This document shows positions 11,352 through 24,597 of a DNA stretch of 25,437 bases, one piece after another (position 1 is the stretch's first letter; each line of letters starts with the position of its first letter). This stretch comes from Fibrobacterales bacterium (GTDB lineage Bacteria; Fibrobacterota; Fibrobacteria; Fibrobacterales; JAOPTW01), in assembly GCA_051532055.1 (NCBI GenBank), contig JAOPTX010000028.1, positions 1 through 25,437 on the forward strand, read 5' to 3'. The translations under genes and the position numbers were made by a program. The notes beneath the pieces are model-generated. The model did not search any database and was not told the DNA's origin. It was given only the letters and a program-made list of their open reading frames with translations.

Positions 11352-12896
11352 TTATTTTGAGCTAAAATCCACTTGAGGGCGCCAATTGCCAGACACACCT
11401 AATACACCTGTCATTCCTCTCAAGTTTCCATAAGTATTCTGACCTGAATGGTCCTGTACTTTCAGGGGACCATTCGGATCATATTCAAAATCATAACTTA
11501 ACAATAGGCCTGATATATCATCGATTAATGCAGTAGTATGATAGAGATTATTAATAATTTCATCTTCCGTCCGTGCACGATTCCAAATACGTACATTATC
11601 CATACGTCCATAAAAATGGCCATCAGAAGATTCTTCACTTTTCCCGAGATAATTAACCCAACGCTCAGTATTGACAGGAACAGCCTTGCTTCCACTTTCC
11701 GACCGCACTTTCTCTATTCCATCGACATAAAAAGACACCACACCATTTGGCGTAACAGTCAGAGCTACATGGGTCCATTGATTAGGAACAAAAACACTAT
11801 CAAGACTCAATCCACTCCATGATTGATCATTAGTACCATCTTTCGCATTACACACCGTATACTGTAATTTATAATTTGACCCTTCAACAACAACTCCAAG
11901 CGCGATCATATAATTATTAAATCGACCATTAGAAAGATGGATGAGATGTGCATACTGCTCTATAGTATCCCACTCAACCCAAAGCTCCATTGTAAGACCA
12001 TTCCCTGTAAAATCAGCATTTACACCGTTCTCTATTTGAACATATTCATTTGACGTTTTGATATTTAAAACTTCAGTAGTATCAGCAAAAACAATTGGTT
12101 TATTAAATGAGAGATCTTGGTTCGATGATGATTCCAGAACCTCATCAAATTCTAACACAGAAGAGGCTACTGAACTCGCTTCTGATGAACTATGCATAGA
12201 TGAGGAACGTGAACCTTCTATAGAACTCGACATCAATGCATCACCATCTATCTTTTCAGATGAACTTGTAGAACTTATCATTTCTTCATATGAACTTATA
12301 AAAACAAAAGAAGACTCTTCTTTACTTGGAGGTAAGATGACCGATACTTTTTCATCTTGACCACTACTGCTTACAGGTAAATCACTTTCGATTTTTTCTT
12401 CTCTATTTTTAATTTGAAAATAGGCACTGTTATTATCAATCACCATAAGAGTTTCCGACTTAAAGCGAGTCAAATTTTCAATCTCTGTCTGCATATATGT
12501 TACACTATCTGATTCATCAATAGATTCATAATATTCTATTTCCACTTCTAAATCATACACAATAGAATCATACACTCTATTAAAATCATCAATCTGTACA
12601 TTAAGAAGTTCAACTTTTTGTTCAAGCCCTCTCACAAAGCCCTTGATACGGACCGCGTCTGTTTCATGGCTTAACACTTCATTTATTCGATTAATAGTAT
12701 CTGTGAGAGCTATCATTTCATTTATTCTTGGACTCAAAGGATTTTGTGAATCATTGTGAGCAATTTCATCTTTAGATTCATTCAACGACAATGGCTCTAT
12801 TGAATTAGTACAGTGCGTTATGAATAGTGAAAGTAATACAGTGAATAGTAACTTTTTGCTGGCCAACCCAACAACATTGCATTTATGAAAATACAT
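11352..12896 (-). CDS. Lipoprotein: helical/coiled-coil domain, Ser-rich linker, LamG-like domain; paralog of 6537-8195
   Basis: Lipobox-like ITHC; LTMELWV, WTHVALT, FYGRMDNVRIWN; aligns by eye with the 6537-8195 protein in both terminal domains. Confidence 0.82.
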   Translation of the reverse strand: MYFHKCNVVGLASKKLLFTVLLSLFITHCTNSIEPLSLNESKDEIAHNDSQNPLSPRINEMIALTDTINRINEVLSHETDAVRIKGFVRGLEQKVELLNVQIDDFNRVYDSIVYDLEVEIEYYESIDESDSVTYMQTEIENLTRFKSETLMVIDNNSAYFQIKNREEKIESDLPVSSSGQDEKVSVILPPSKEESSFVFISSYEEMISSTSSSEKIDGDALMSSSIEGSRSSSMHSSSEASSVASSVLEFDEVLESSSNQDLSFNKPIVFADTTEVLNIKTSNEYVQIENGVNADFTGNGLTMELWVEWDTIEQYAHLIHLSNGRFNNYMIALGVVVEGSNYKLQYTVCNAKDGTNDQSWSGLSLDSVFVPNQWTHVALTVTPNGVVSFYVDGIEKVRSESGSKAVPVNTERWVNYLGKSEESSDGHFYGRMDNVRIWNRARTEDEIINNLYHTTALIDDISGLLLSYDFEYDPNGPLKVQDHSGQNTYGNLRGMTGVLGVSGNWRPQVDFSSK

Positions 12897-12914: not shown

Positions 12915-12954
12915 AGTATTATTAATATCAAAGAACTTTGATATTAATAATACT
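12915..12954. repeat. Perfect 19-bp inverted repeat with 2-nt spacer
   Basis: AGTATTATTAATATCAAAG-AA-CTTTGATATTAATAATACT. Confidence 0.9.
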
Positions 12955-13222
12955 CAGTGTGTCCCCGTTTCATAGGTAAACCATAATAAAATGCCTTGTA
13001 TTTCTTTGACACTTCAAATAATTCCCTATGGTATCTCATCACATACAGTAATACTATTACTGAACACCGGCAAACATAGCAAAGAGAACGAAACCCCTCA
13101 CCCACTTTACGTATATTTTACATAGTGACAGGGTTTCCCAGCCAATATCGGCATTCAGTAAACATTATTTAACATACTTTAGAAAAAGATTCGCACAGCC
13201 CCATAGGCAAGTACTAGGAACC

Positions 13223-13293
13223 GCGAGAGTTAAAAATAGAGAAGAACGTTTGGGACACACTTCTCTATTTTCAGAGAGAACTCCGCATTTTTT
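13223..13293. ncRNA. Candidate small RNA / terminator-like hairpin with GGGACAC (minus strand GUGUCCC) loop; strand uncertain
   Basis: 12-bp stem AAAATAGAGAAG (13233-13244) / CTTCTCTATTTT (13260-13271), 15-nt loop; outer GCGAGAGTT/AACTCCGC extension followed by T6; no long ORF ends here. Confidence 0.4.
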
Positions 13294-13495
13294 CACTCAA
13301 TTGAGTCTATTTTTTATTTTCCTCTGTTAATTTAATACGACATCCAATACAGGCGTGATTCGTCAACAAATGTCAACATCAATTCCCTAATTTTGAGACT
13401 TCAAGTAATTTATAGAGAAACTAAAAGATACTTTTAACATACACACACATTAGAAAGTACCAACATATAGAATGACACATACATCGGGGGACACA

Positions 13496-13639
13496 ATGAA
13501 AGGATTAGCACTTATACTCAGCAGCATAATGAGCATACTTTTGGTCAGTTTTTCTATACACGAATTTTCACAAGCTGGTAATTACACCATAGAACCCATC
13601 AGCTCAAATGACCTATTCGGTGAAGAGGGAGCACAATGA
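13496..13639 (+). CDS. Unannotated 47-aa small membrane/secreted peptide MKGLALILSSIMSILLVSFSIHEFSQAGNYTIEPISSNDLFGEEGAQ
   Basis: GGGGGA RBS identical in context to that of the 21031 gene; N-terminal hydrophobic helix; stop overlaps the next start (ATGA). Confidence 0.6.
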   Translation: MKGLALILSSIMSILLVSFSIHEFSQAGNYTIEPISSNDLFGEEGAQ

Positions 13640-13743
13640 GTGTAATACAATACCACCTAACAGAAATAGAAGCAGGTTATATTACACGCAAGTGCCACTC
13701 AGCTAACATTAAGAACAGTACAGGAGCACTGAAAACATATTAG
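13636..13743 (+). CDS. Unannotated 35-aa small ORF MSVIQYHLTEIEAGYITRKCHSANIKNSTGALKTY
   Basis: GAGGGAG RBS, ATGA overlap with the upstream sORF, followed by a hairpin and a terminator. Confidence 0.45.
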   Translation: MSVIQYHLTEIEAGYITRKCHSANIKNSTGALKTY

Positions 13744-13800
13744 ATTATTTTGAATGCCCAAGCAGATATTTCACTAGAGTAAACTCTTTGAATATCTGCG

Positions 13801-13838
13801 AAAAGAGCCAATAGAGGGACACCTATTGGCTCTTTTTT
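13801..13838 (+). terminator. Intrinsic terminator (possibly bidirectional) after the small-ORF pair; loop AGGGACAC
   Basis: AAAAGAGCCAATAG-AGGGACAC-CTATTGGCTCTTTTTT; a second hairpin GCAGATATT/AATATCTGC lies at 13762-13799. Confidence 0.85.
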
Positions 13839-13908
13839 ATGAATTCTACCCCATACATAGGGCAAAAGTGCTACATTTAGGCTCTAAAATACCCTTTTTG
13901 AGCGTTTT

Positions 13909-15339
13909 ATGAATTATATATCGACCCGTGGCGGAATGGAGCCTCAACAGTTTTCTGACATCCTTCTTGGTGGCCTCGCCCCCGATGGTGGTTTGACTCT
14001 TCCAGAATCCTATCCTCAGTTTTCACTTACTGAACTAGCCGATATGGCTTCTCTCAGTTATGCTGATCTTGCCTATAGTGTCATCTCAAAACTTGCTACC
14101 GATATAGATCCCACCGATCTTAAAGAAATAATCGATGCTACATATACTGAAGAAGTGTATTGTAATGGCCGTGAACCTGCTCATGCGAATGAGATTACTC
14201 CACTGACTCAACTTGATGAGACACTCTTTCTACAAGAACTTTCTAATGGCCCCACACTCGCCTTTAAAGATATGGCCATGCAGCTCCTCGGCAATCTTTT
14301 TGAGTTTGTATTAGAGAAACGCAATCAGACAATAAACATTGTCGGCGCAACCTCTGGTGACACCGGCTCTGCAGCAGAATATGCAATGCGCGGCAAAAAA
14401 GGTGTCAACGTTTTCATGCTCTCACCGAAAGGTAAAATGAGCGACTTTCAACGTGCTCAAATGTTTAGCCTTCAAGACAACAACATTTTTAACATTACCA
14501 TTCCTTCATTTTTTGATGGCTGTCAAGATCTTGTTAAAGCAGTTAATAACGATGCAGATTTTAAGAAAGAGTACCAAGTGGGTGCAGTAAACTCCATTAA
14601 CTGGGGACGCATTGTTGCACAAGTGGTCTACTATTTTAAAGGCTACCTCGCTGCTGCACCAACTGTAGGCGATGCGGTCGACTTTACTGTACCTTCAGGG
14701 AACTTTGGCAATGTCTGTGCAGGTCATATAGCACGTATGATGGGTGTACCAATCAGAAACCTCGTTGTTGCAACCAATGAAAATGATGTGCTCGATGAGT
14801 TTTTCAAAACAGGCGCCTATCTTCCACGCCCCGATGAAAAAGTTTTTCAAACGTCAAGCCCATCAATGGACATTTCAAAAGCATCAAACCTTGAACGGTT
14901 TGTCTTTGATCTCGTCGGTCGTGATTCTAAAAAACTGGCAACCTTCTGGAAAGATGTTGAAGCCGGCAAAGGCTTTACCCTTGATGCCGCTACAACTGCA
15001 AAAATGAAAGAACGGTATGGCTTTCTCTCTCAGAAAAGTACTCATGCTGAGCGTCTTGCCTCTATTAAAGAAGTATTTGAAACCTATAAGCTCGAGATAG
15101 ATACTCACACAGCTGATGGGTATCATGCAGCTAAAATACATCGTGACCCAAAAGTACCAATGGTTATAACAGAGACAGCACTTGCATGTAAATTCAGAGA
15201 GTCAATTGTCGAAGCTCTTGGTACTGAACCTCATCGTCCTGAACATTTAAAAGGAATAGAGGAACTGCCCCAACGTTCATTCGATATAGAAAATGATAGT
15301 ATCTCACTTAAAAAATTTATAACAGATAATTTGGGATAA
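13909..15339 (+). CDS. thrC: Threonine synthase
   Basis: YISTRG, GLAPDGGL, GPTLAFKD (PLP lysine), GATSGDTG, NSINWGR, VPSGNFGN, ATNEND, SPSMDI..ASN.ER. Confidence 0.97.
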   Translation: MNYISTRGGMEPQQFSDILLGGLAPDGGLTLPESYPQFSLTELADMASLSYADLAYSVISKLATDIDPTDLKEIIDATYTEEVYCNGREPAHANEITPLTQLDETLFLQELSNGPTLAFKDMAMQLLGNLFEFVLEKRNQTINIVGATSGDTGSAAEYAMRGKKGVNVFMLSPKGKMSDFQRAQMFSLQDNNIFNITIPSFFDGCQDLVKAVNNDADFKKEYQVGAVNSINWGRIVAQVVYYFKGYLAAAPTVGDAVDFTVPSGNFGNVCAGHIARMMGVPIRNLVVATNENDVLDEFFKTGAYLPRPDEKVFQTSSPSMDISKASNLERFVFDLVGRDSKKLATFWKDVEAGKGFTLDAATTAKMKERYGFLSQKSTHAERLASIKEVFETYKLEIDTHTADGYHAAKIHRDPKVPMVITETALACKFRESIVEALGTEPHRPEHLKGIEELPQRSFDIENDSISLKKFITDNLG

Positions 15340-15359
15340 GTATCGGAGCACAATATTTT

Positions 15360-15392
15360 AAGCCAGCCTCATTACTATGAGACTGGCTTTTT
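15360..15392 (+). terminator. Intrinsic terminator of thrC
   Basis: AAGCCAG-c-CTCAT-tact-ATGAG-a-CTGGCTT followed by Ts. Confidence 0.8.
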
Positions 15393-15721
15393 ATTTTATA
15401 GACAATCAAAATGAACACATTTATTAACATACTCCAACAATTTTACACAGCTTAACATACCCCACTACAATTATCTTGTTGTGTAATTTTCTTTACACTA
15501 CATAAAACAGTGCAACCAAATTCCTCAAGCTCTGTATCCCTAACTTTACTTGAATTGCCCTCAGAGTATCCTACCTTTGTATTCAATGGCACACAGCCAG
15601 AACACATGACAAAACGTAAACTCATTCCTTGCTTCTCTAATCACTACCTTTGCAGACGAGGCCTCTTTCTCTTTATGAGTTCACCCTGACCATTTACCTC
15701 TTTACTAAAAAACAAGACTCA

Positions 15722-17086
15722 ATGAATAGTATAATATCAATACTCATACTCCTCACGTTCACCACCCTTATTCAGGCACAATTCCCCTCAATGAATCGCA
15801 TGCCCACCTCCCCAGCGAAGGGAGTACAAGGACTTGCCGTTGTCATTAATTTTGCCGACACCCCTAAAAACAAACAAATATCAAATGCTGCAATAGAACG
15901 ATTATACAATCAGCCAGACTATGCACGGTTCGGAAACAATGGTTCTGTTCGAGACTATTACATAGCAATGAGTAATGGAGCTTATGATATTACGCACACC
16001 GTAATTCAATACACTACTAATCACCCGAAAGAGTACTACACCTATCAGCAATACCAATCAGATCATCACCTCCTTCTCAATGAAGTAACAAAATGGTTGA
16101 CTGAAGGAACAGGCCTTAACCCAGATAGATATGATAGTGATGCAGATGGAATTATCGACGCTCTTACTCTTCTCTACACCGACACTCCAAGCGGAGGTTG
16201 GGGAAATTCACTATGGCCTCATATCAGCATTTTAGAAAAAACGGCGTCATGGCACAACTTCACAGTGGATCGCTATGCTGTGGTCCCGGTCTACACTCAT
16301 TCCCCAGGACAGCTCTCTATCGGAACAATCTGCCACGAATTAGGGCACCTTCTCTTTCAATGGCCTGACATTACCCCTTCAAACGCATCATCAGCAAACC
16401 ACAGTGGCCTCATGGGCACGGGTCTGAACCCTAGCAACCCCCTTCCTCCCTCACCACTCTATAGAATCCATGAGAGATGGTCTCCCTCATTCAACCTATC
16501 TATCAACCACGACACCACCCTTACTCTCTCATCAAAATTGAATAGCCCCATTTACCAAATACAAAACCCTCAGGATACAGACGAATACCTTTTACTTGAG
16601 TATCGCACTCAGAAAGGCCGATACTCATCGAGTAATCTTTCAGGGCTTCTCATATACCACGTTGCCCCCCTTGATTCATCTCGTTGTGACCCTAGAATAT
16701 CCTGTTTTCCAAAAACAACCTTACTTGATCAAAACGCTCTCTATTGGGATAATGGCACTAAAATCGAACTTACATTCTCATTGGGACACATCTACGAAAC
16801 ATCACTTTCTCTAACCATACAGAGCACGAATTCATCCCCTGAGACCTCCAACCAATTGCCCCCCCGCTACTCTTTAACTCAGACAGAGAGCCATATTATT
16901 ATTACCGCAACAACTGAATCTCCTTTCACTGCAACAATATTCTCCATCACTGGTATTGAACTCATAAGTGATACCGGTAGAAACAACTCTCTCTCAATAG
17001 AAAGAAGACACCTTCTTCCAGGAGTTAATCACCTCTATATTAAGAGTAAAAAAGAGACTCAGTATTTTACTATTGGCCAGTGGTAA
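15722..17086 (+). CDS. Secreted M6-family (immune inhibitor A-like) zinc metalloprotease with C-terminal sorting-like domain
   Basis: Start moved to ATG 15722 (signal peptide ..LIQA); GSVRDYY..MSNG, YDSDADGIID, LWPH, GTICHELGH (HExxH), LMG.G, YLLLEYR, GLLIYH. Confidence 0.8.
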   Translation: MNSIISILILLTFTTLIQAQFPSMNRMPTSPAKGVQGLAVVINFADTPKNKQISNAAIERLYNQPDYARFGNNGSVRDYYIAMSNGAYDITHTVIQYTTNHPKEYYTYQQYQSDHHLLLNEVTKWLTEGTGLNPDRYDSDADGIIDALTLLYTDTPSGGWGNSLWPHISILEKTASWHNFTVDRYAVVPVYTHSPGQLSIGTICHELGHLLFQWPDITPSNASSANHSGLMGTGLNPSNPLPPSPLYRIHERWSPSFNLSINHDTTLTLSSKLNSPIYQIQNPQDTDEYLLLEYRTQKGRYSSSNLSGLLIYHVAPLDSSRCDPRISCFPKTTLLDQNALYWDNGTKIELTFSLGHIYETSLSLTIQSTNSSPETSNQLPPRYSLTQTESHIIITATTESPFTATIFSITGIELISDTGRNNSLSIERRHLLPGVNHLYIKSKKETQYFTIGQW

Positions 17087-17370
17087 CAATCGACCAAGAT
17101 ATTTTCGTCTTTTAAACCCAAAAGACATATTTTCCTTTATAACGGTTCCCCAAGATGAACTTATTGAGTCAAGTTCAACCAATTTCAAAGTTATATTGGC
17201 CATCAATTTTATTTGGGCCTAGAATCCTATAAGCTCATCTTTCATCAATTGAGGCAAGCTCTTTAGAGCGGTCCCTTTTACTAGGTTTCACTCATTTATT
17301 TATTAACTGGCTACACATCTATATCGTTAGATTGTACTTTTCCAGAATATCTTCTTTAACGGGAATTCTC

Positions 17371-18096
17371 ATGTACATAAAAATGGTATTTATCAGCCTT
17401 TTATTACTCTCCACTATTTATTCAGAACAATATAACAGCCTCGAAGATGCCCAAATTGCAGGTACGACCAAGCAAGAAGGTGATTTTATCTACGTAACAA
17501 TCCATGATACCATCTATACAAATACTTGTAACTGCGATACCATTATCAATCCATGCCCGCAGACTAATGAAGGTTCCTTCTTCCAATCCATAGAGCATAG
17601 TATTCACTCTAACCTTTTAACGCTTGTCTCCTTTGATGCACACATAAAATACAGTGCAACTATGGATAGTATTCATACCATTACTACTGAAGTAGGCACT
17701 CTCGCAAGTAGAAATGGCTGGTTTGTTTTAGGCGGCTACCACTATGGCTTTAGCAAGCTCCAGGATGACCCTTGGTTTATAGGTACCCAATTAAACTGGG
17801 CCCAAATGGATGGGGATTATAACATTGGAGAAAAAATGGATAAATTAGTACACATACAATCCTATGTTGGAACTCTTGGGATCTTTGTAGGAAGCCGTAC
17901 TCAGTGGAAATCAGGCTTTTTTGCAGAATGGCGGGTCGGCCCTTCAATTCCATACTACTGGGAAAAAAACTACACAAATTACAAGAACCACCCACAAACT
18001 CAGTTTGAAAAAGATGTAGAAGATTATGATTCTATTTTAAAAACAATGACCTATGTATTTGGAGGAAGCGGACTGAATGTTGGCTGGCTCTTCTAA
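17371..18096 (+). CDS. Hypothetical exported protein, probable outer-membrane beta-barrel
   Basis: Signal peptide; amphipathic strands; C-terminal GLNVGWLF beta-signal-like ending; stop overlaps the modC stop. Confidence 0.6.
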   Translation: MYIKMVFISLLLLSTIYSEQYNSLEDAQIAGTTKQEGDFIYVTIHDTIYTNTCNCDTIINPCPQTNEGSFFQSIEHSIHSNLLTLVSFDAHIKYSATMDSIHTITTEVGTLASRNGWFVLGGYHYGFSKLQDDPWFIGTQLNWAQMDGDYNIGEKMDKLVHIQSYVGTLGIFVGSRTQWKSGFFAEWRVGPSIPYYWEKNYTNYKNHPQTQFEKDVEDYDSILKTMTYVFGGSGLNVGWLF

Positions 18097-19190
18097 AGAG
18101 AATCAACCTGTACCGCACTGGCCTTAAATAGACAATAAATCAATTGCCCTTTACCCAGTTCTAAACTACGAAAGGATTCAATTGAGATTACTGTATACAA
18201 TGGAAACCCACAATCAATCAAGCAGCGCACCTGCGTTCCTTCGACAATAAGTTCCTTTATGACTCCACGAATTTGATTTGCTGTAGATATCCCACACACC
18301 TTCTTTTTTGCCAGAGAGATCGCACCAGGGTGTAAGGTACATTCAAAAAAGGTCCCTTCCTCTTTCTCCTCAACATCTGCACCCACAATATAGAGTGCAA
18401 CATCAGTGCAAATAAATGGGCGAGGTTCTACTACAACACTATGTCGACTTGATGCAGTGACTTCATTTATTTGTTTAACCTCTTTACGAACCATAAATCG
18501 ATTAATCACTGACGCGTGTTCAATGCCCCGTATACCGGAATTAAACAAAAGGTGATCGATAGAACCTTGCCATGCTATCGACCTATCATCAATAACCGCA
18601 ACACGGGAAGTGAGTCGCATAATATCAGCAAGCTCATGGGATACGACTAAAATAGGGAGCGCATACTGGGCCTGAATTTTTTTAAGAAAGGGTATAATTT
18701 GATATCTTCGTTCACTATCAAGAGCAGAAAATGGTTCATCAAGAAGTAATACATCAGGCTCTTGTAATAAGGTACGCCCGAGAGCAACTCGCTGTTTTTC
18801 ACCACCTGAAAGAGTCTCAGGATACGCTGTAAGAAGTCCTGTTATATCAAGTAATGAAGCAACCTCACTCAACCTATCTAAACCTGGTTTGCTATAGCGC
18901 AAATTTTGCACTACCGTCATATGAGGAAAAAGGCGACTCTCTTGAAAAACCACACCAACACTTCGTTTATGTGGCGATAGCCAAGTTCCTGCATTACTAT
19001 CCGTGAGTATTGTACCGTTAAGCTTGACCACGCCTTTAGAAGGTTTAACAATACCAGCAATCACATTAAGAAGTGTACTTTTACCACTACCCGATCTTCC
19101 AAAAATTCCAGTAAAACCGTTATTAAATTCTGCGTTATAGGTGAACATTTCTCCACCCTGTTCTACTATGCAATTAAGCGATAGACTCAT
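18093..19190 (-). CDS. modC: Molybdate ABC transporter ATP-binding protein
   Basis: Walker A GRSGSGKST, VFQESRLFPH, LSGGEKQR, LLLDEP, VSH, C-terminal TOBE-like region; operon context. Confidence 0.93.
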   Translation of the reverse strand: MSLSLNCIVEQGGEMFTYNAEFNNGFTGIFGRSGSGKSTLLNVIAGIVKPSKGVVKLNGTILTDSNAGTWLSPHKRSVGVVFQESRLFPHMTVVQNLRYSKPGLDRLSEVASLLDITGLLTAYPETLSGGEKQRVALGRTLLQEPDVLLLDEPFSALDSERRYQIIPFLKKIQAQYALPILVVSHELADIMRLTSRVAVIDDRSIAWQGSIDHLLFNSGIRGIEHASVINRFMVRKEVKQINEVTASSRHSVVVEPRPFICTDVALYIVGADVEEKEEGTFFECTLHPGAISLAKKKVCGISTANQIRGVIKELIVEGTQVRCLIDCGFPLYTVISIESFRSLELGKGQLIYCLFKASAVQVDSL

Positions 19191-19879
19191 ATCCGCCTCC
19201 GTTTTTTCTTACTGCGGTGCGTAACATACGAAGCAACCACCATAGAGCCAAAAGCGAGAAGTACTGAACACAGTGTTACTGCGAGAGCCTCATTTTCTTT
19301 ACCAGGAACCTGCATGAGTGCATATATTTTAAGAGGTAGTGTCTGGGTTGCCCCAGCAATATTACCTGCAAACGTTATTGTCGCACCAAACTCTCCAAGT
19401 GCCCGGGCAAAACCAAGAACTGCTCCACTCAGAACTCCCGGAGCCACCAACGGTAATGTTATCGTAAAAAATTGCCGCCCTGGCCCAGCACCAAGAGTTG
19501 CAGCAGCTGTTTCGAGACCTTGAGGTGCCATCTCAAATGCAGTTTGAATAGACCGTAAAATTAAGGGAAATGACACTACACCAGCAGCGACAATTGCAGC
19601 TGTTGATGTGAAAGCCAGTTGGATGCCAAACATATCAAAGAGATAGGAGCCAACTACTCCATGTTTCCCGAGAGTGAGAATCAACAGATAGCCTAATGCA
19701 ACAGGTGGCAACACCAATGGTAGCTGTAACACAGTATTGATAACTGATTTCCCTGGAATCGCATAAGTATGTAACCCCCAGGCACATGCAAGCGCAAAAG
19801 GGGTTGCAATACCCACACTCACTAATGCGACATAGAGAGAAAGCCCAATAACTTCTATTAGTTCTGGTGAAAGCATCAT
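19187..19879 (-). CDS. modB: Molybdate ABC transporter permease
   Basis: LPLVLPPV.LGY.L, EAA-like ETAAATLGA, FARALGEFGAT..FAGNI; ATGA overlap with modC. Confidence 0.95.
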   Translation of the reverse strand: MMLSPELIEVIGLSLYVALVSVGIATPFALACAWGLHTYAIPGKSVINTVLQLPLVLPPVALGYLLILTLGKHGVVGSYLFDMFGIQLAFTSTAAIVAAGVVSFPLILRSIQTAFEMAPQGLETAAATLGAGPGRQFFTITLPLVAPGVLSGAVLGFARALGEFGATITFAGNIAGATQTLPLKIYALMQVPGKENEALAVTLCSVLLAFGSMVVASYVTHRSKKKRRRI

Positions 19880-20647
19880 CTACTGTACAAATCCATATTT
19901 ATTAAAAACCTCTTGAACATTCTTAGTGGATAGAAATTTAAAAAATACAGAAGCTTCTGGTGTTCCAGTAATCTGTATTGCAGTATACCTTATAGGTGAA
20001 TGACTCTGCTCCGGAAAAACCCCGAGAAGATGTACCTTTTTAGAGCGCTGTACGTCACTCCCATACACTATAGCATAAGGTACTTCACCTGTTTCAACAG
20101 CCATAAGTGCCGACCGTACATCCTTCGTTGGTACAATATTCTGAGCAAGACCCTCAAACCACCCATAATAGGTGAGCGCTTCACTTGCATACTTGCCAGC
20201 CGGAACATGTGCAGGGTCTCCAATAGCAATTCTACCCGCTAGTATTGGAGTAAAAAAAGCAGAAGCAGAGTCTATGACAACAGCCTGAGCCCCATTCTGT
20301 CCAATGAGTACTAAGCTATTGTGGGCTATAGGCGCGAGAGAATGATTATTTGCTAAACCAATACTATCAAGATAGTCAGCCCATTCTGTATTTGCCGAAA
20401 TATAGATATCACCCGGAGCCCCACTCACTAGTTGCCGTGCTAAGGTACCACTCGACCCTGTATTCACCAAAATTTCAATGTCATGATTTTCAGCATATAT
20501 CGATATGATCTCATCAATCACATCTGAAAAACTTGCAGCTACATGTACAATAAGACGAGAAGGAGTCCTCTCTTTATTATGATCATCACATCCTTGGATA
20601 GTCACAATCAATGCAACGAATATGTGTAGCCAAACAATCTGTCTCAT
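19880..20647 (-). CDS. modA: Molybdate ABC transporter substrate-binding lipoprotein
   Basis: Lipobox IQGC; AAS, GSSGTLARQ, DIYISA, IGDP..VPAGKYA, VYGSD. Confidence 0.93.
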   Translation of the reverse strand: MRQIVWLHIFVALIVTIQGCDDHNKERTPSRLIVHVAASFSDVIDEIISIYAENHDIEILVNTGSSGTLARQLVSGAPGDIYISANTEWADYLDSIGLANNHSLAPIAHNSLVLIGQNGAQAVVIDSASAFFTPILAGRIAIGDPAHVPAGKYASEALTYYGWFEGLAQNIVPTKDVRSALMAVETGEVPYAIVYGSDVQRSKKVHLLGVFPEQSHSPIRYTAIQITGTPEASVFFKFLSTKNVQEVFNKYGFVQ

Positions 20648-20659
20648 AATTTATGAATA

Positions 20660-20675
20660 AGCAACCTTTGTGCCA
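20660..20675 (-). promoter_or_regulatory. sigma54 (-24/-12) promoter of modABC
   Basis: Minus strand TGGCAC-AAAGG-TTGCT matches TGGCAC-N5-TTGCW with correct spacing and orientation. Confidence 0.8.
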
Positions 20676-21030
20676 GTTCTGTGGAAAGCAATTAGATTCT
20701 AAATATAACCATCTCCACTCCTACCCTATTACCTGATTGTCATTTTAATCGGTAAACATACAATTTTGTACTACAGAAGAGTTTATATCACACTTTTCAC
20801 CCAAGAGCTGAAACCTAAAATATTTAAATTAAACTGATTACTATATAACTATCAAAACAACTAAAACACACCGTAGACAATGATTTAAAAACCATAAAGA
20901 ACCTGCCAAAACAATAAGAAAACTCGATGTTAAATGTGGCGTTACAATCAATTACTCCGTAATTTTTAATATAAGTTAAGCCCATACTTATACAAATACA
21001 TATACATACATACTTGTCGTCGGGGGACAC

Positions 21031-24000
21031 ATGTCAAGATACACTGTAAGGAGTTGGGCTTCCTTAGTAATTGCTCTATTTTTTTTCATACAATCACCTC
21101 TCTTTGCACAACGTGCAAACATTGCACTCAATAAAAGCATCACAACCGATGACCCATCTCCACAGTATCCTCTGGAACGAATGGTCGATGGTAATATGAC
21201 AAGTCGATGGGCAAGTCAAGAAAACTCTTCTAAACCATGGCATATTATCATTGATTTAGAGGGCACCTTTCTCCTTGACTCAATCTACCTCGCCTGGGAA
21301 GCTGCTGGCGCTGAACACTTTACCATTGAAGTATCAACAGACAACAATCACTGGGATGAAGTAGTAGATAAACGAAATACTGGAACTGGTCCCTTTCAAA
21401 ATCGACTTAACTTCTCACCTGTTTCGGCGCAGTATGTTAAAATAAACTTCCTTGTACGCGCTACTGTGTATGGCTATTCACTCTACGAAGCGGAAGTGTA
21501 CGGTGAAACACCACCTGACTATGTTGCTTCCTTACAGATAGATGGACTAGATTCATTTTTAACCGTGGGGAAAAATAGGATCTATAGCGCAGGGGTTTAT
21601 AATGGTGAAGGAATAGAAATTTCTACAAAAAGTAGTGATATCAAATGGTCGCTAAACAGGTCGCTCCCAAGCAATGCTCAACTTTCGAACAACACAGGTA
21701 CTACTACATCGCTTTCCCCTGAAAAACCTTATCAAAAAGTCACCCTCATTGCGGAGTATACCGATAGTCAATACTCAGGACATACCTTTTTCGATTCTAT
21801 CCCTCTCTATATCAATCCCGACCCAAACAGCTACAATGGGGCAGTGCGCTGTGACATGGTGACTGCACAAGACACCTGCATCACTCTCGATGACCTCAAT
21901 GGCCTCTATCCTGATCTCCCCCAAAACATCACTCGCATAGCCGACAAAGACCTTAATATTTGCCTACCTGATGATGCGATATTTACTGCACCGGTAAATA
22001 TTGTATTTGCTATTGACATGAGTGGGAGTATGACATTTCCTCAAAATGACCCTACCTTTCTTACTCCCATCGCTGTTAAGAAAGCCATAGAAACCATCTA
22101 TGCAGAAGTACCCGATTCAAAAGTTGGATTTATGGGCTTTTCAGGTGGAGTATGTACCGGCACTGGTAAATATTCAGGTGGAGGCTATGGAAAAGGAACA
22201 AGACAAACAGAAAAGTCAAGTACCACTGTTTCCCCTAAAGCATTAGACCAAATACAATTAGATTCTCTTTATGCTCAAACTACTTATAACAAAGACGACT
22301 ATTGGTTTAATTGTGGATCAGAGTTTGGAGGTACTTCATATACCGAAGCATTTACCCTTGCCACTGAGTGGCTCGACCCCCTTGAAACCGAGTCTATAAA
22401 CAACAGTATCATTATATTTTTCACAGATGGTAATCCTGAGAATGATGATAATTTTTCAAAATATGTAGACACGCATGACTCTAGCGATCACCCTAAAGTT
22501 TACACTGTTGCCCTACAAAGCGCAATTAACGATAGTCTTGAAATTTTCATCAAAAAAACAAAAGGTTCCAAAATACTCATCGATAATGATGACAACATTG
22601 ATGGTGCAATTCAAGAAATTCTCAAAGATGCAATTTCCTCAATAACACCAGGAAACTTCACTGTATCAAATGGCACTCAATCATATACGACGGATGATTT
22701 TTCACTGCTTAATTCTAATGAAAAAAAGTATACCATTTCTGGAGATATTATTCCTCTTGCAGAAGATACCAATACCGTCATCTTTGAAGCAGTTGCAGAA
22801 TCAGATACTTCGAGTGCATTTTCCGCACGATTGAGTATCGACATTTCTGGAAAGACCCTCACTACCATTGGGAGACAATCTATTGCCGGCACCCCTTTTG
22901 ATGCAGTCTGCTATGAAACGGCTTCACTAACCGTTACTGACCAACAAGACTCTCTACTCAATGAAATCACCTTTGAAACAAGTCAGCTCAGTATTGCTCT
23001 TTCAACACCTTCATCAGTTGATGAACCAACTATCACTGCTTCAACAACCAAAGAGCGTGAAACTATTCTATTAAACACTATGATATCACCGTACAGCAGC
23101 ATCTCCTACTCCGTTGAAGTTGTTGATATTTCGCATCACGAAAACAGCGCATTCGAACTTCAAGATAGTACACATCTTAACTTTTTTTGGCGTAACCCTC
23201 TCGACCCAAGAGATAGTTCGACAATCACTATACCTATCAATGCAACCTATATAGAACCAATCCCTGATCCCGAACCAATTCGTATTCCAAAACCAGAGTT
23301 TTCATGGATATACGATGCAAACAATAATGGCACCGCTGATAGAATAGTAATAGCCTTTGACACCGCACTCACTGAACTGCCCTCTACCGTTAAATCGATA
23401 CATTGGCCCAGTGATGAAACCCGATCGGTCACAGCATCAGAAGAGTATATCTCATTTTATACAGAGGCTGACAGCACCGATTATTCAAAAGTCGTTGTGT
23501 CATACCCAGAACAAAGTCCTTTTAAAAAACACACGACTCAACAAGACGATGAGAATCTTCCCAACCTTAAGGTACTTGACCAAACAGTTACCATACTCAA
23601 CCGCATTGGACCCATAATAATTGATGCTCGGAAATCGTCATCAGACTATGAACGATACGCTATTCAACATGCAGATGGTACAACGAGTAATCACATTAGG
23701 CCCGACACCCTCCGCATTACACTCTCTGAAGCGATAGTCTTCAATGATTCTTTAAAACATAGCCTTATCGCTGTATTAAGAGATTCAGTTGCTGTAGTTC
23801 CTACTCTTGCCGCTCCTCCTTATTCAGATGATGGTATTCATTGGACGATGTATCTTGATATAAGTACCAGTAGAAATACCATCCTTGTCAATAACCTCAT
23901 CTCACTCAATCCTGCAATTACTATAACCGACTCCCTTGGTAACAAGGCTCTAAAAGTAGGACATATTGTAACAGGGATGGATGGCGTTGATAAAAGTTCT

Positions 24001-24597
24001 TTTGGAACATTTAGAGAGCCCATTGTACAATCATCAGGAAGTTTAACTACACCAACCCTGACTACTATTGAAGTACCTGTTTTCACTGAATCAGGTGAAC
24101 TCATATCTGGCACTTCTGAATTAATTCCTATTCCTCTCTCACCGACCTGGGTCCCTCCCGTTGTCGTCCCCCCTCATTTTTCTCCGAAAAATGATAATAA
24201 TACCATCGGTCAAACTTGTACCGACCCTCAAGTTGCTCAGCCATTTACTAAAGGGTGTCTCGCATCCTATGCACTCCTAACTCAAGAGGCTATGGGGGCC
24301 TATACCACCGAAGTATTTGTCTATAATAACCTCGGACACTATGTCACCCACTGGAAACAGTATTTTGGTTATTGTGGTGAATTTGACAATGCTCACCGAA
24401 TAGCCCAAACATCAACAGAAGGTGCCTTTATTAATGACCTCGCCTGGGATTTAACCGATTCAAAAGGCCGAGAAGTAGCAAGTGGTGTCTACTTTTGGAA
24501 GATTATTATGTCTTTTGCATCTGGTCAACAGCTTCAGTATAACAAAGAGGTTGGTGTGTTGAATGACCGCGAAACGTGTATGAGTCAACTGTTCTAA
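21031..24597 (+). CDS. Large secreted/surface protein: F5/8-type C (discoidin/CBM32-like) domain, Ig-like region, vWA domain, beta-rich stalk, FlgD-Ig-like C-terminal domain
   Basis: Signal peptide; NIALNK..DGN.TSRW.S..IDL..WE..YGYSLYE; MIDAS DMSGS, GGTSY, FFTDG; YDANNNGTADRI; VYNNLG..WDLTDSKGREVASGVYFWK. Confidence 0.8.
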   Translation: MSRYTVRSWASLVIALFFFIQSPLFAQRANIALNKSITTDDPSPQYPLERMVDGNMTSRWASQENSSKPWHIIIDLEGTFLLDSIYLAWEAAGAEHFTIEVSTDNNHWDEVVDKRNTGTGPFQNRLNFSPVSAQYVKINFLVRATVYGYSLYEAEVYGETPPDYVASLQIDGLDSFLTVGKNRIYSAGVYNGEGIEISTKSSDIKWSLNRSLPSNAQLSNNTGTTTSLSPEKPYQKVTLIAEYTDSQYSGHTFFDSIPLYINPDPNSYNGAVRCDMVTAQDTCITLDDLNGLYPDLPQNITRIADKDLNICLPDDAIFTAPVNIVFAIDMSGSMTFPQNDPTFLTPIAVKKAIETIYAEVPDSKVGFMGFSGGVCTGTGKYSGGGYGKGTRQTEKSSTTVSPKALDQIQLDSLYAQTTYNKDDYWFNCGSEFGGTSYTEAFTLATEWLDPLETESINNSIIIFFTDGNPENDDNFSKYVDTHDSSDHPKVYTVALQSAINDSLEIFIKKTKGSKILIDNDDNIDGAIQEILKDAISSITPGNFTVSNGTQSYTTDDFSLLNSNEKKYTISGDIIPLAEDTNTVIFEAVAESDTSSAFSARLSIDISGKTLTTIGRQSIAGTPFDAVCYETASLTVTDQQDSLLNEITFETSQLSIALSTPSSVDEPTITASTTKERETILLNTMISPYSSISYSVEVVDISHHENSAFELQDSTHLNFFWRNPLDPRDSSTITIPINATYIEPIPDPEPIRIPKPEFSWIYDANNNGTADRIVIAFDTALTELPSTVKSIHWPSDETRSVTASEEYISFYTEADSTDYSKVVVSYPEQSPFKKHTTQQDDENLPNLKVLDQTVTILNRIGPIIIDARKSSSDYERYAIQHADGTTSNHIRPDTLRITLSEAIVFNDSLKHSLIAVLRDSVAVVPTLAAPPYSDDGIHWTMYLDISTSRNTILVNNLISLNPAITITDSLGNKALKVGHIVTGMDGVDKSSFGTFREPIVQSSGSLTTPTLTTIEVPVFTESGELISGTSELIPIPLSPTWVPPVVVPPHFSPKNDNNTIGQTCTDPQVAQPFTKGCLASYALLTQEAMGAYTTEVFVYNNLGHYVTHWKQYFGYCGEFDNAHRIAQTSTEGAFINDLAWDLTDSKGREVASGVYFWKIIMSFASGQQLQYNKEVGVLNDRETCMSQLF

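Follow-up and report, generated by a model that had tools for sequence, protein, structure and literature searches.

GGGACAC, a leader word of exported-protein genes in a Fibrobacterales genus and possible site of post-transcriptional control

The DNA under study is a 25,437-nt stretch (the window, positions 1-25437) of a marine Fibrobacterales genome, G000 (5.17 Mb, 94% complete), and the element in question is the 7-mer GGGACAC, which occurs six times within it. Over the whole genome, GGGACAC is a discrete, oriented and lineage-specific leader word tied to genes of exported proteins. An initial annotation of the window had described the motif as a sense-strand word common to the leaders and ribosome-binding sites (RBSs) of envelope and secreted protein genes, and had built on it a local circuit in which hairpin loops carry the same word. 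The first part holds and extends genome-wide. The local leader-and-hairpin circuit is mostly unsupported: one of its two hairpins is missing in the sister species, G001, and the enrichment of the motif in loops is weak. That early observation led in this way to a real genome-wide motif worth following.

The preferred reading, held tentatively and with somewhat less than even confidence, is that GGGACAC serves as a lineage-specific site of a post-transcriptional regulator on exoprotein mRNAs. It would be a sense-strand 5'-leader element of exported-protein mRNAs, mostly those of glycan-binding and glycan-degrading exoproteins, placed usually in the Shine-Dalgarno (SD) slot 0-4 nt before the AUG and less often 13-250 nt upstream together with a separate SD. 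The 7-mer would then act as the docking site of one trans-acting post-transcriptional factor, either a small RNA (sRNA) whose seed is GUGUCCC or a protein that recognizes this RNA sequence specifically, whose binding at or beside the RBS could set the translation of a dispersed exoprotein regulon. The fuller version of this proposal is more doubtful: a single factor (a GUGUCCC-seed sRNA, or an RRM- or CsrA-type protein of unusual specificity) might govern about 25-45 exoprotein mRNAs, with the sense hairpin-loop copies, in the terminator of a small open reading frame (sORF) and in the C57 and C4 leaders described below, as auxiliary or decoy sites.

GGGACAC in gene leaders across the genome

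The gene set comprises 3810 genes from a home-made, crude open reading frame (ORF) caller with SD-guided start choice, and products were classed as signal-peptide-like by a hydropathy rule, which flags 39.9% of them. In the leader zone scanned, from -22 to -1 relative to the start codon, GGGACAC stands before 24 genes, 21 of which encode signal-peptide-like proteins (Fisher p 1.8e-6 against the 39.9% baseline). The initial annotation had proposed a genome-wide count near start codons, and the enrichment in leaders that this count reveals passes family-wise tests: of the 1074 7-mers tested, none is more strongly biased towards exported genes than GGGACAC, whose p value is reached in 1 of 300 label permutations. 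Under a position-specific second-order Markov null for exported-gene leaders, 21 copies were observed against 2.6 expected (maximum 7 in 100 simulations), and the z-score of GGGACAC is the highest of all 7-mers, above those of the SD words.

The 21 single-base variants are all rare, occurring before 0-6 exported genes each; the counts of exported to other genes are 4:3 for AGGACAC, which is the better SD, 3:1 for GGGACAT, 6:4 for GGGATAC and 5:1 for GGGACAA. CAC is the commonest triplet after GGGA, and after AGGA it ranks 49th. In a test free of start calls, 34 of the 251 genomic copies have an ATG no more than 9 nt downstream that opens an ORF of at least 60 aa, the highest share among the 64 GGGANNN words (median 4%) and among 210 permutations. 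When this list is read by eye, about 22 of roughly 24 credible starts begin as signal or lipoprotein peptides.

The motif is also oriented. Among the non-coding copies, 47 of 63 lie in sense upstream of the next gene, compared with a 57% baseline (p 0.005). Nearly half of these leader-sense copies (22 of 47) end 0-12 nt before the start, at the position of an SD (about 4-12 nt); 18 stand 0-4 nt from it, and 16 of those 18 precede signal-peptide-like genes. Another 16 copies lie 13-250 nt upstream, 13 of them again before signal-peptide-like genes. As a side observation, the word CGTT is found 0-3 nt before the motif at 6 of the 251 copies, all non-coding, and ranks 51st among the 4-mers in that slot.

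Paralogy was rejected as the source of the common RBS word, the 24 motif proteins falling into 21 BLAST clusters. Their Pfam families include LamG, BNR (BNR+LamG), GH16, GH5 and CBM6+fn3, as well as F5/8-type-C (several), peptidase M60, CotH, Fib_succ_major and thaumatin. The three non-exported exceptions encode a metallo-beta-lactamase fold, a DUF4423 protein and TrpF. DUF4423, described as a Fibrobacter-typical family, supplies paralogues that are two of the few non-exported motif genes, one in each species (G000 C3:92821 and G001 L041), and presumably TIGR02147-like; the G000 orthologue of L041 carries GAGACAC.

A DNA-level match to the window was found in 1 of 40 relatives searched, namely G001, of the same genus, and a search of the genome contig collection for close relatives of the window returned one locus. 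In G001, GGGACAC followed after 0-4 nt by ATG occurs at 33 sites. Of the 32 examined, 20 begin ORFs of 101 codons or more, and the products of 18 of these are signal-peptide-like; the 33rd site belongs to the orthologue of the gene for a 1188-aa exported protein in the window. Tracing the G001 sites to G000 gave 7 clear orthologues with the exact 7-mer, several of them with diverged flanks, together with a group of altered orthologues considered below; 3 sites had no hit and the remainder were paralogous or unclear. The pairs in this comparison are kin rather than independent, and possession of the motif in G001 was what qualified a site for it. Outside the genus, in three further families of the Fibrobacterales (G002, G007 and G029), counts of the pattern are equal to or barely above those of a reversed-pattern control, and among 18 sites sampled there not one is believable as the start of an exported gene. 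Within the limits of this sampling, the motif class thus belongs to this genus alone. In a metagenome scan, relatives of thrC, a gene of the window, reached at most 63% identity, and the 7-mer lies upstream in 0 of the 62 having full flanks.

The cluster that first drew attention to the motif is a different matter. The whole window holds 6 copies against 1.48 in shuffles (1 of 100 shuffles reaches 6) and against the 1.2 expected per window from the 251 genomic copies on both strands; by whole-window count GGGACAC ranks 9th of 6960 7-mers. It is the top non-coding 7-mer of the window, with 5 copies versus 0.31 expected (p 2e-5). The cluster is not compelling by itself, because a non-coding 7-mer that is equally or more enriched is found in 45 of 150 other 25-kb windows of the genome, a control somewhat inflated by the crude ORF-based gene calls. 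A post-hoc local cluster of this kind is a common outcome of post-hoc search and, alone, no evidence. The picking of the motif after the fact, the 45 windows, the rank of 9th and the modest number of loop copies outside the window (3 versus about 0.8 expected) would all fit a coincidence throughout, in which the local cluster and the genome-wide pattern alike are accidents. That explanation is already disfavoured and has a very slight chance of being correct: the genome-wide tests lie outside the window's own data and are corrected across 1074 7-mers, the pattern is replicated in G001, and the orientation bias is significant.

Ribosome, promoter or trans-acting factor

The translation signals of the genome are canonical, with SDs rich in AAGGAG words and a G peak at -9; GGGA, GGGG and AGGGA are enriched in the SD slot (-12 to -6), and the 16S 3' end reads GGATCACCTCCTTTCT. 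Like an ordinary SD, GGGACAC has the appropriate position relative to the AUG, and its GGGA can pair with the 3'-UCCU-5' of the anti-SD. Unlike an ordinary SD, it is not complementary along its whole length, the CAC part being unable to pair with GGATCACCTCCTTTCT; moreover, it is confined to exported-protein genes and can also stand ahead of a separate SD.

The main rival, possible if doubtful, is a specialized ribosome-binding context that requires no regulator. A weak SD (R-GGGA), with four pairs to the anti-SD of which one is G-U, would lie in CA-rich, unstructured leaders, and GGGACAC would be the commonest junction word. The use of canonical SDs, the enrichment of GGGA-type words in the slot and the 18 leader-sense copies at SD position are consistent with this, as are the purine that precedes the motif in 36 of 61 copies (A in 20 of 61), the A that follows it in 32 of 61, the independent enrichment of CA-rich words in exported-gene leaders and the turnover of the motif between the sister genomes. 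This context nevertheless leaves the main quantities unaccounted for: a null that holds the compositional trends gives 2.6 copies where 21 are seen, the neighbouring CA-type continuations (GGGACAT, GGGACAA and GGGATAC) are 3-5 times rarer, the copies 13-250 nt upstream, which have their own SD, are tied to exported genes too (13 of 16), and the pattern is missing in the three other Fibrobacterales families. The CA-rich words enriched before signal-peptide-like genes independently of GGGACAC are ACATAC (27:6), CACACA (26:7) and ACACA (71:43); GGGCAT is likewise enriched there (14:2, at -22 to -1 of starts).

A trans-acting factor is preferred over an SD or composition effect because of the sharp 7-mer specificity, which includes a CAC unable to pair with the anti-SD; the copies placed ahead of a separate SD, those in leader hairpin loops and the narrow phylogenetic range favor it as well.

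An element acting at the DNA level, be it a promoter, an initiator or a transcription-factor site, in an envelope regulon whose leaders are very short, is improbable. The motif is strongly oriented and close to gene starts, TATATT- or TACATT-like hexamers lie 1-8 nt upstream of several copies, and the conserved block of the C4:95914 copy begins with TATATT. However, no position-specific signal appears at the 60 upstream positions (information at most 0.12 bit), a -10-like hexamer 3-10 nt upstream is present in 10 of 24 motif genes, not significantly different from the 30% among 1494 control exported genes, and a distance of 0-4 nt from the ATG is too short for a -10 element. A promoter at a fixed distance upstream of the motif was rejected on these comparisons.

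Several observations weigh against the proposed regulator site. Most copies sit where an SD should be, so a ribosome-only explanation is possible. The genus is represented by only two genomes, G000 and G001, and both starts and signal peptides derive from the crude caller and the hydropathy rule rather than from a trained predictor. About half of the orthologue pairs differ in the 7-mer: about six orthologues depart from it by 1-2 bases (GGGATAC, GGGACAT, GAGACAC, GGGGCAT), and the copy before the sORF of the window reads GGGACAA in G001, which indicates that the motif turns over between the sister species. Motif accessibility shows a slight gain only (mean unpaired probability 0.56 versus 0.40 in control RBS regions), and no common secondary structure surrounds the RBS copies. 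Finally, no trans-acting factor for GGGACAC was found among the partners checked. GUGUCCC is absent from 16S and 23S rRNA, from the signal recognition particle (SRP) RNA and from 33 tRNA and tmRNA genes; 26 non-leader or distant sites folded on the GUGUCCC strand gave no convincing sRNA, and Rfam at 20 non-leader motif sites returned two adjacent tRNAs and sub-threshold matches only. A lipoprotein gene with the motif (C57:30402-31193) is followed directly by the SRP RNA gene (C57:31361-31459); the latter contains no GGGACAC and no complement of it, and the adjacency is probably a coincidence.

Fibrobacterota are major polysaccharide degraders, and the post-transcriptional control of their large secreted enzyme repertoires is almost uncharted. 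Narrow full-text literature searches turned up no account of an RBS word peculiar to exported proteins in Fibrobacterota, and for the 7-mer itself the papers listed gave primer-type matches only. Should the regulator site prove real, the exported-protein RBS word would offer a direct handle on a regulon, supplying a list of targets, a seed sequence and a partner open to testing, and would be an unusual case of translation-initiation signals partitioned by protein destination. Were it merely leader composition, it would be an ordinary quirk, yet useful for gene-start calling and for predicting exported proteins in this lineage.

Window copies, hairpin loops and candidate partners

All six GGGACAC copies listed in the initial annotation were confirmed at their coordinates, five of them non-coding and one, as it had stated, coding (16783-16789, plus strand, within the ORF 15650-17086), which falls outside the leader class. 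On the minus strand, the copy at 12959-12965 lies in the 5' leader of a LamG lipoprotein gene (11352-12896). It is a leader copy and not an RBS, because 62 nt separate it from the LamG ATG (12896). It belongs to a 12-nt island (AACGGGGACACA, minus strand) unchanged in G001, amid flanks of about 69% identity. A perfect 13-bp palindrome, TATTAATATCAAAG..CTTTGATATTAATA (12920-12949), is found between this leader motif and the LamG start and is not conserved in G001.

The remaining two leader copies are on the plus strand. One (13488-13494) occupies the SD slot 1 nt before the ATG of the 47-codon sORF (13496-13639), where TCGGGGGACACAATG precedes the coding region; the other (21024-21030) abuts the ATG of the 1188-aa exported protein (21031-24597, F5/8-type-C + VWA), where TCGGGGGACACATG precedes the ORF at 21031. 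The leader of the latter, from 20995 onward, is 100% identical in G001. The two RBSs share a long match, TCGGGGGACACA, whose two occurrences in the 5.17-Mb genome are both within the window; ACATAC-type repeats precede both, and no further genomic copies were found that would mark the two long matches as a repeat or mobile element. These three copies (12959-, 13488+ and 21024+) are ordinary members of the leader class.

The 10-bp inverted match reported between 13252-13261 and 12956-12965 is exact (GGGACACACT / AGTGTGTCCC). An invertible promoter was considered for it and rejected, the second arm being missing in G001 and the copies being strongly orientation-biased.

The two hairpins with GGGACAC in the loop are present and fold as the initial annotation described. 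Hairpin 1 (13233-13271) has an AU-rich 12-bp stem and a 15-nt loop (13245-13259) with the motif at 13252-13258. An A-tract before it and a T-tract after it give it a bidirectional, terminator-like form, and its fold is more stable on the minus strand (-19.6 kcal/mol, z -4.2, equalled by 0 of 200 shuffles) than on the plus strand (-14.8 kcal/mol, z -2.0); on the minus strand the loop presents UGUGUCCC (GUGUCCC) and UUUUU follows. No upstream gene ends at this hairpin, which lies inside a 74-nt indel (13208-13282) absent from G001. A second indel relative to G001 spans 42 nt (13313-13354), and neither indel has other genomic copies.

Hairpin 2 (13800-13843, plus strand) lies 160-200 nt after the sORF stop and 66 nt upstream of thrC, and consists of a 14-15-bp stem and the 8-nt loop AGGGACAC (13815-13822; motif 13816-13822), followed by TTTTTT. 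Immediately 5' of it is hairpin A (13762-13799, plus strand), which is conserved in G001. As in an intrinsic terminator, the tandem of hairpins A and 2 is highly stable for its composition (-36.8 kcal/mol, z -7.1) and is followed by UUUUUU; hairpin 2 is thus predicted from folding to be the terminator-like 3' end of the sORF transcript. Its stem and loop are identical in G001 save for the first loop base, and covariation is uninformative here because the block 13740-13908 is nearly invariant between both genomes. No other genomic copies of hairpin 1 or hairpin 2 exist, and a repeat or mobile element carrying either was rejected.

Compared with Rho-independent terminators, hairpin 2 shares the long stem and the T-run after a small ORF, and hairpin 1 the A- and T-tracts; they differ in that hairpin 1 is AU-rich and the T-runs of both lie partly inside the stems. 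For these reasons an intrinsic-terminator consensus scanner listed neither hairpin. The content of the loop is normally irrelevant to termination. The available RNA-library contigs (X2), which are unstranded, of low depth and derived from the sample that probably also yielded the DNA, cover 11 of 30 window bins, among them 13550-13726, parts of thrC and other genes; they leave uncovered 13102-13402 and the core of hairpin 2, so that neither hairpin is covered.

Across the genome, GGGACAC accounts for 5 of the 8986 7-mers in the loops of 1998 non-coding perfect-stem hairpins, versus about 0.8 expected, and two of the five are the window's own. The proposed enrichment in loops is thus weak outside the window, and a link between the hairpins and the leader class is not supported by it. 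Two of the three non-window loop copies are in leader hairpins of exported genes (C57:24878 and C4:95914). The first stands 30 nt upstream of a gene whose RBS carries a further copy; this region, C57:24845-24895, is the leader of a 232-aa F5/8-type-C exported protein, with the loop copy in an 8-bp hairpin whose loop (AAACGTTACTGGGACACC) resembles that of window hairpin 1 (AACGTTTGGGACACA). The second lies within a 28-nt island invariant in G001. For the two window copies, which sit in terminator-like hairpins, a connection to the leader class is at most putative.

One model put forward for the window held that minus-strand small RNAs from its hairpins present UGUGUCCC loops as anti-SD seeds. 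The minus strand of hairpin 1, with its stability, UUUUU tail and loop GUGUCCC, agrees with it, as do the three GUGUCCC words within 570 nt on that strand and the sharp 7-mer specificity of the targets, which suits base pairing. Nonetheless, this origin of a seed is quite improbable, and the model was not borne out: hairpin 1 alone is terminator-like on the minus strand, and G001 lacks it and yet keeps the target class. On the minus strand, hairpin 2 lacks a free U-tail and no promoter-like site is listed between 13838 and 13908; genome-wide, a U-tail follows on the GUGUCCC strand in 1 of 5 loop cases.

To our knowledge, no sRNA regulon has been described in Fibrobacterota. Among the closest functional analogues in other bacteria, RsaE and other Rsa RNAs of S. 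aureus are described as sRNAs whose C-rich (UCCC) seeds pair with G-rich SD regions (PMC2790875), and LhrC of Listeria as a C-rich-seed sRNA that envelope stress induces and that represses the adhesin LapB (PMC4132741). The present case resembles the RsaE and LhrC targets in the G-rich SD-slot word common to dispersed mRNAs (24 genes), many of them for surface proteins, in a specificity as sharp as base pairing would give, and in being a lineage-specific system. It differs from them in that the motif extends 3' of the SD core (CAC) and that a GUGUCCC-seed sRNA was not found in the rRNAs, the SRP RNA, the tRNAs, the 26 folded sites or Rfam.

RsmA controls exoenzymes in other bacteria. The search suggested for csrA, hfq and RRM genes found csrA and one RRM_1 protein (C30:10647-10859), which are candidate factors; hfq was not detected in this 94% complete genome. 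The csrA gene (PF02599 match C10:100228-100383, 89 bits) is the last of a flagellin-fliW-csrA cluster (C10:98805-100458), from which the lineage appears to be flagellated. The flagellin leader contains three AGGA words within 60 nt of the ATG, one of them over the SD and none of them GGGACAC, and its fold showed nothing distinctive.

Known CsrA sponge RNAs carry many GGA. The second model for the window invoked such titration, the plus-strand hairpin loops acting as GGA decoys that draw CsrA away from the motif at RBSs. It is very improbable, even though csrA is encoded, GGA lies within the motif and the C57:24847 leader, with a loop copy 30 nt upstream plus an RBS copy, has the classical two-site CsrA layout. 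Each window hairpin offers one GGA and no array; csrA is partnered with FliW, a known protein antagonist, beside a flagellin whose leader uses AGGA; CsrA recognition explains neither the CAC nor the rarity of AGGACAC; and the motif class is missing in the other Fibrobacterales genomes sampled. With A(N)GGA, typically in a hairpin loop, taken as the consensus of the CsrA site, A precedes the motif in 20 of 61 copies and 5 copies lie in perfect-stem hairpin loops. CsrA/RsmA is described as repressing translation at GGA sites, including in the FliW-CsrA-flagellin module (PMC4894983, PMC6529632). In comparison, GGGACAC is alike in having a GGA that overlaps the SD, in some leader hairpin-loop copies and in the presence of csrA; it is unlike in the FliW partnership and AGGA leader of the local csrA, in the misfit of the CAC requirement and of AGGACAC rarity, and in the lack of a multi-GGA sponge RNA. 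Membership in either the C-rich-seed sRNA or the CsrA/RsmA system is not established.

The sORF, the thrC-upstream block and neighboring features

The sORF (plus strand) encodes a signal-peptide-like N-terminus and has the same length, frame and stop in G001; its product may be a small secreted peptide, judging from this N-terminus and a possible SQA|G cleavage site. The RNA-library contig at 13550-13726 overlaps its 3' half. A reading of the sORF as a leader-peptide attenuator of thrC was rejected, the peptide having no Thr/Ile run. The block 13740-13908 upstream of thrC, composed of the tandem hairpins and a 66-nt spacer, hardly differs between the two genomes. The neighboring sORF coding region is visibly less conserved. 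The block could be a regulatory leader or promoter for thrC. Rfam searched over the window at E<=1 gave only a chance snoRNA match, and none for 13740-13908.

About 120 nt upstream of the sORF, a direct repeat, GTCAACA-AAT-GTCAACA (13362-13378), is contained in a 20-nt stretch invariant in G001 and may serve as an operator or promoter. Between the divergent LamG and sORF genes there is also a conserved non-coding block at 13050-13135, CGGCAAACATAGCAAA...CTCACCCACTTTACGTA.ATTTTACATA; the remainder of this intergenic region either has about 69% identity or cannot be aligned.

Divergent from the 1188-aa gene, the minus strand carries a ModABC-like molybdate ABC transporter operon (18093-20647; SBP_bac_11, BPD_transp_1, ABC_tran+TOBE). 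On the plus strand of the entire window, C exceeds G in every 1-kb bin (GC skew -0.06 to -0.32) and A exceeds T in all but two. This skew is a compositional asymmetry of the strand and not a gene-level effect, because it holds whatever the gene orientation.

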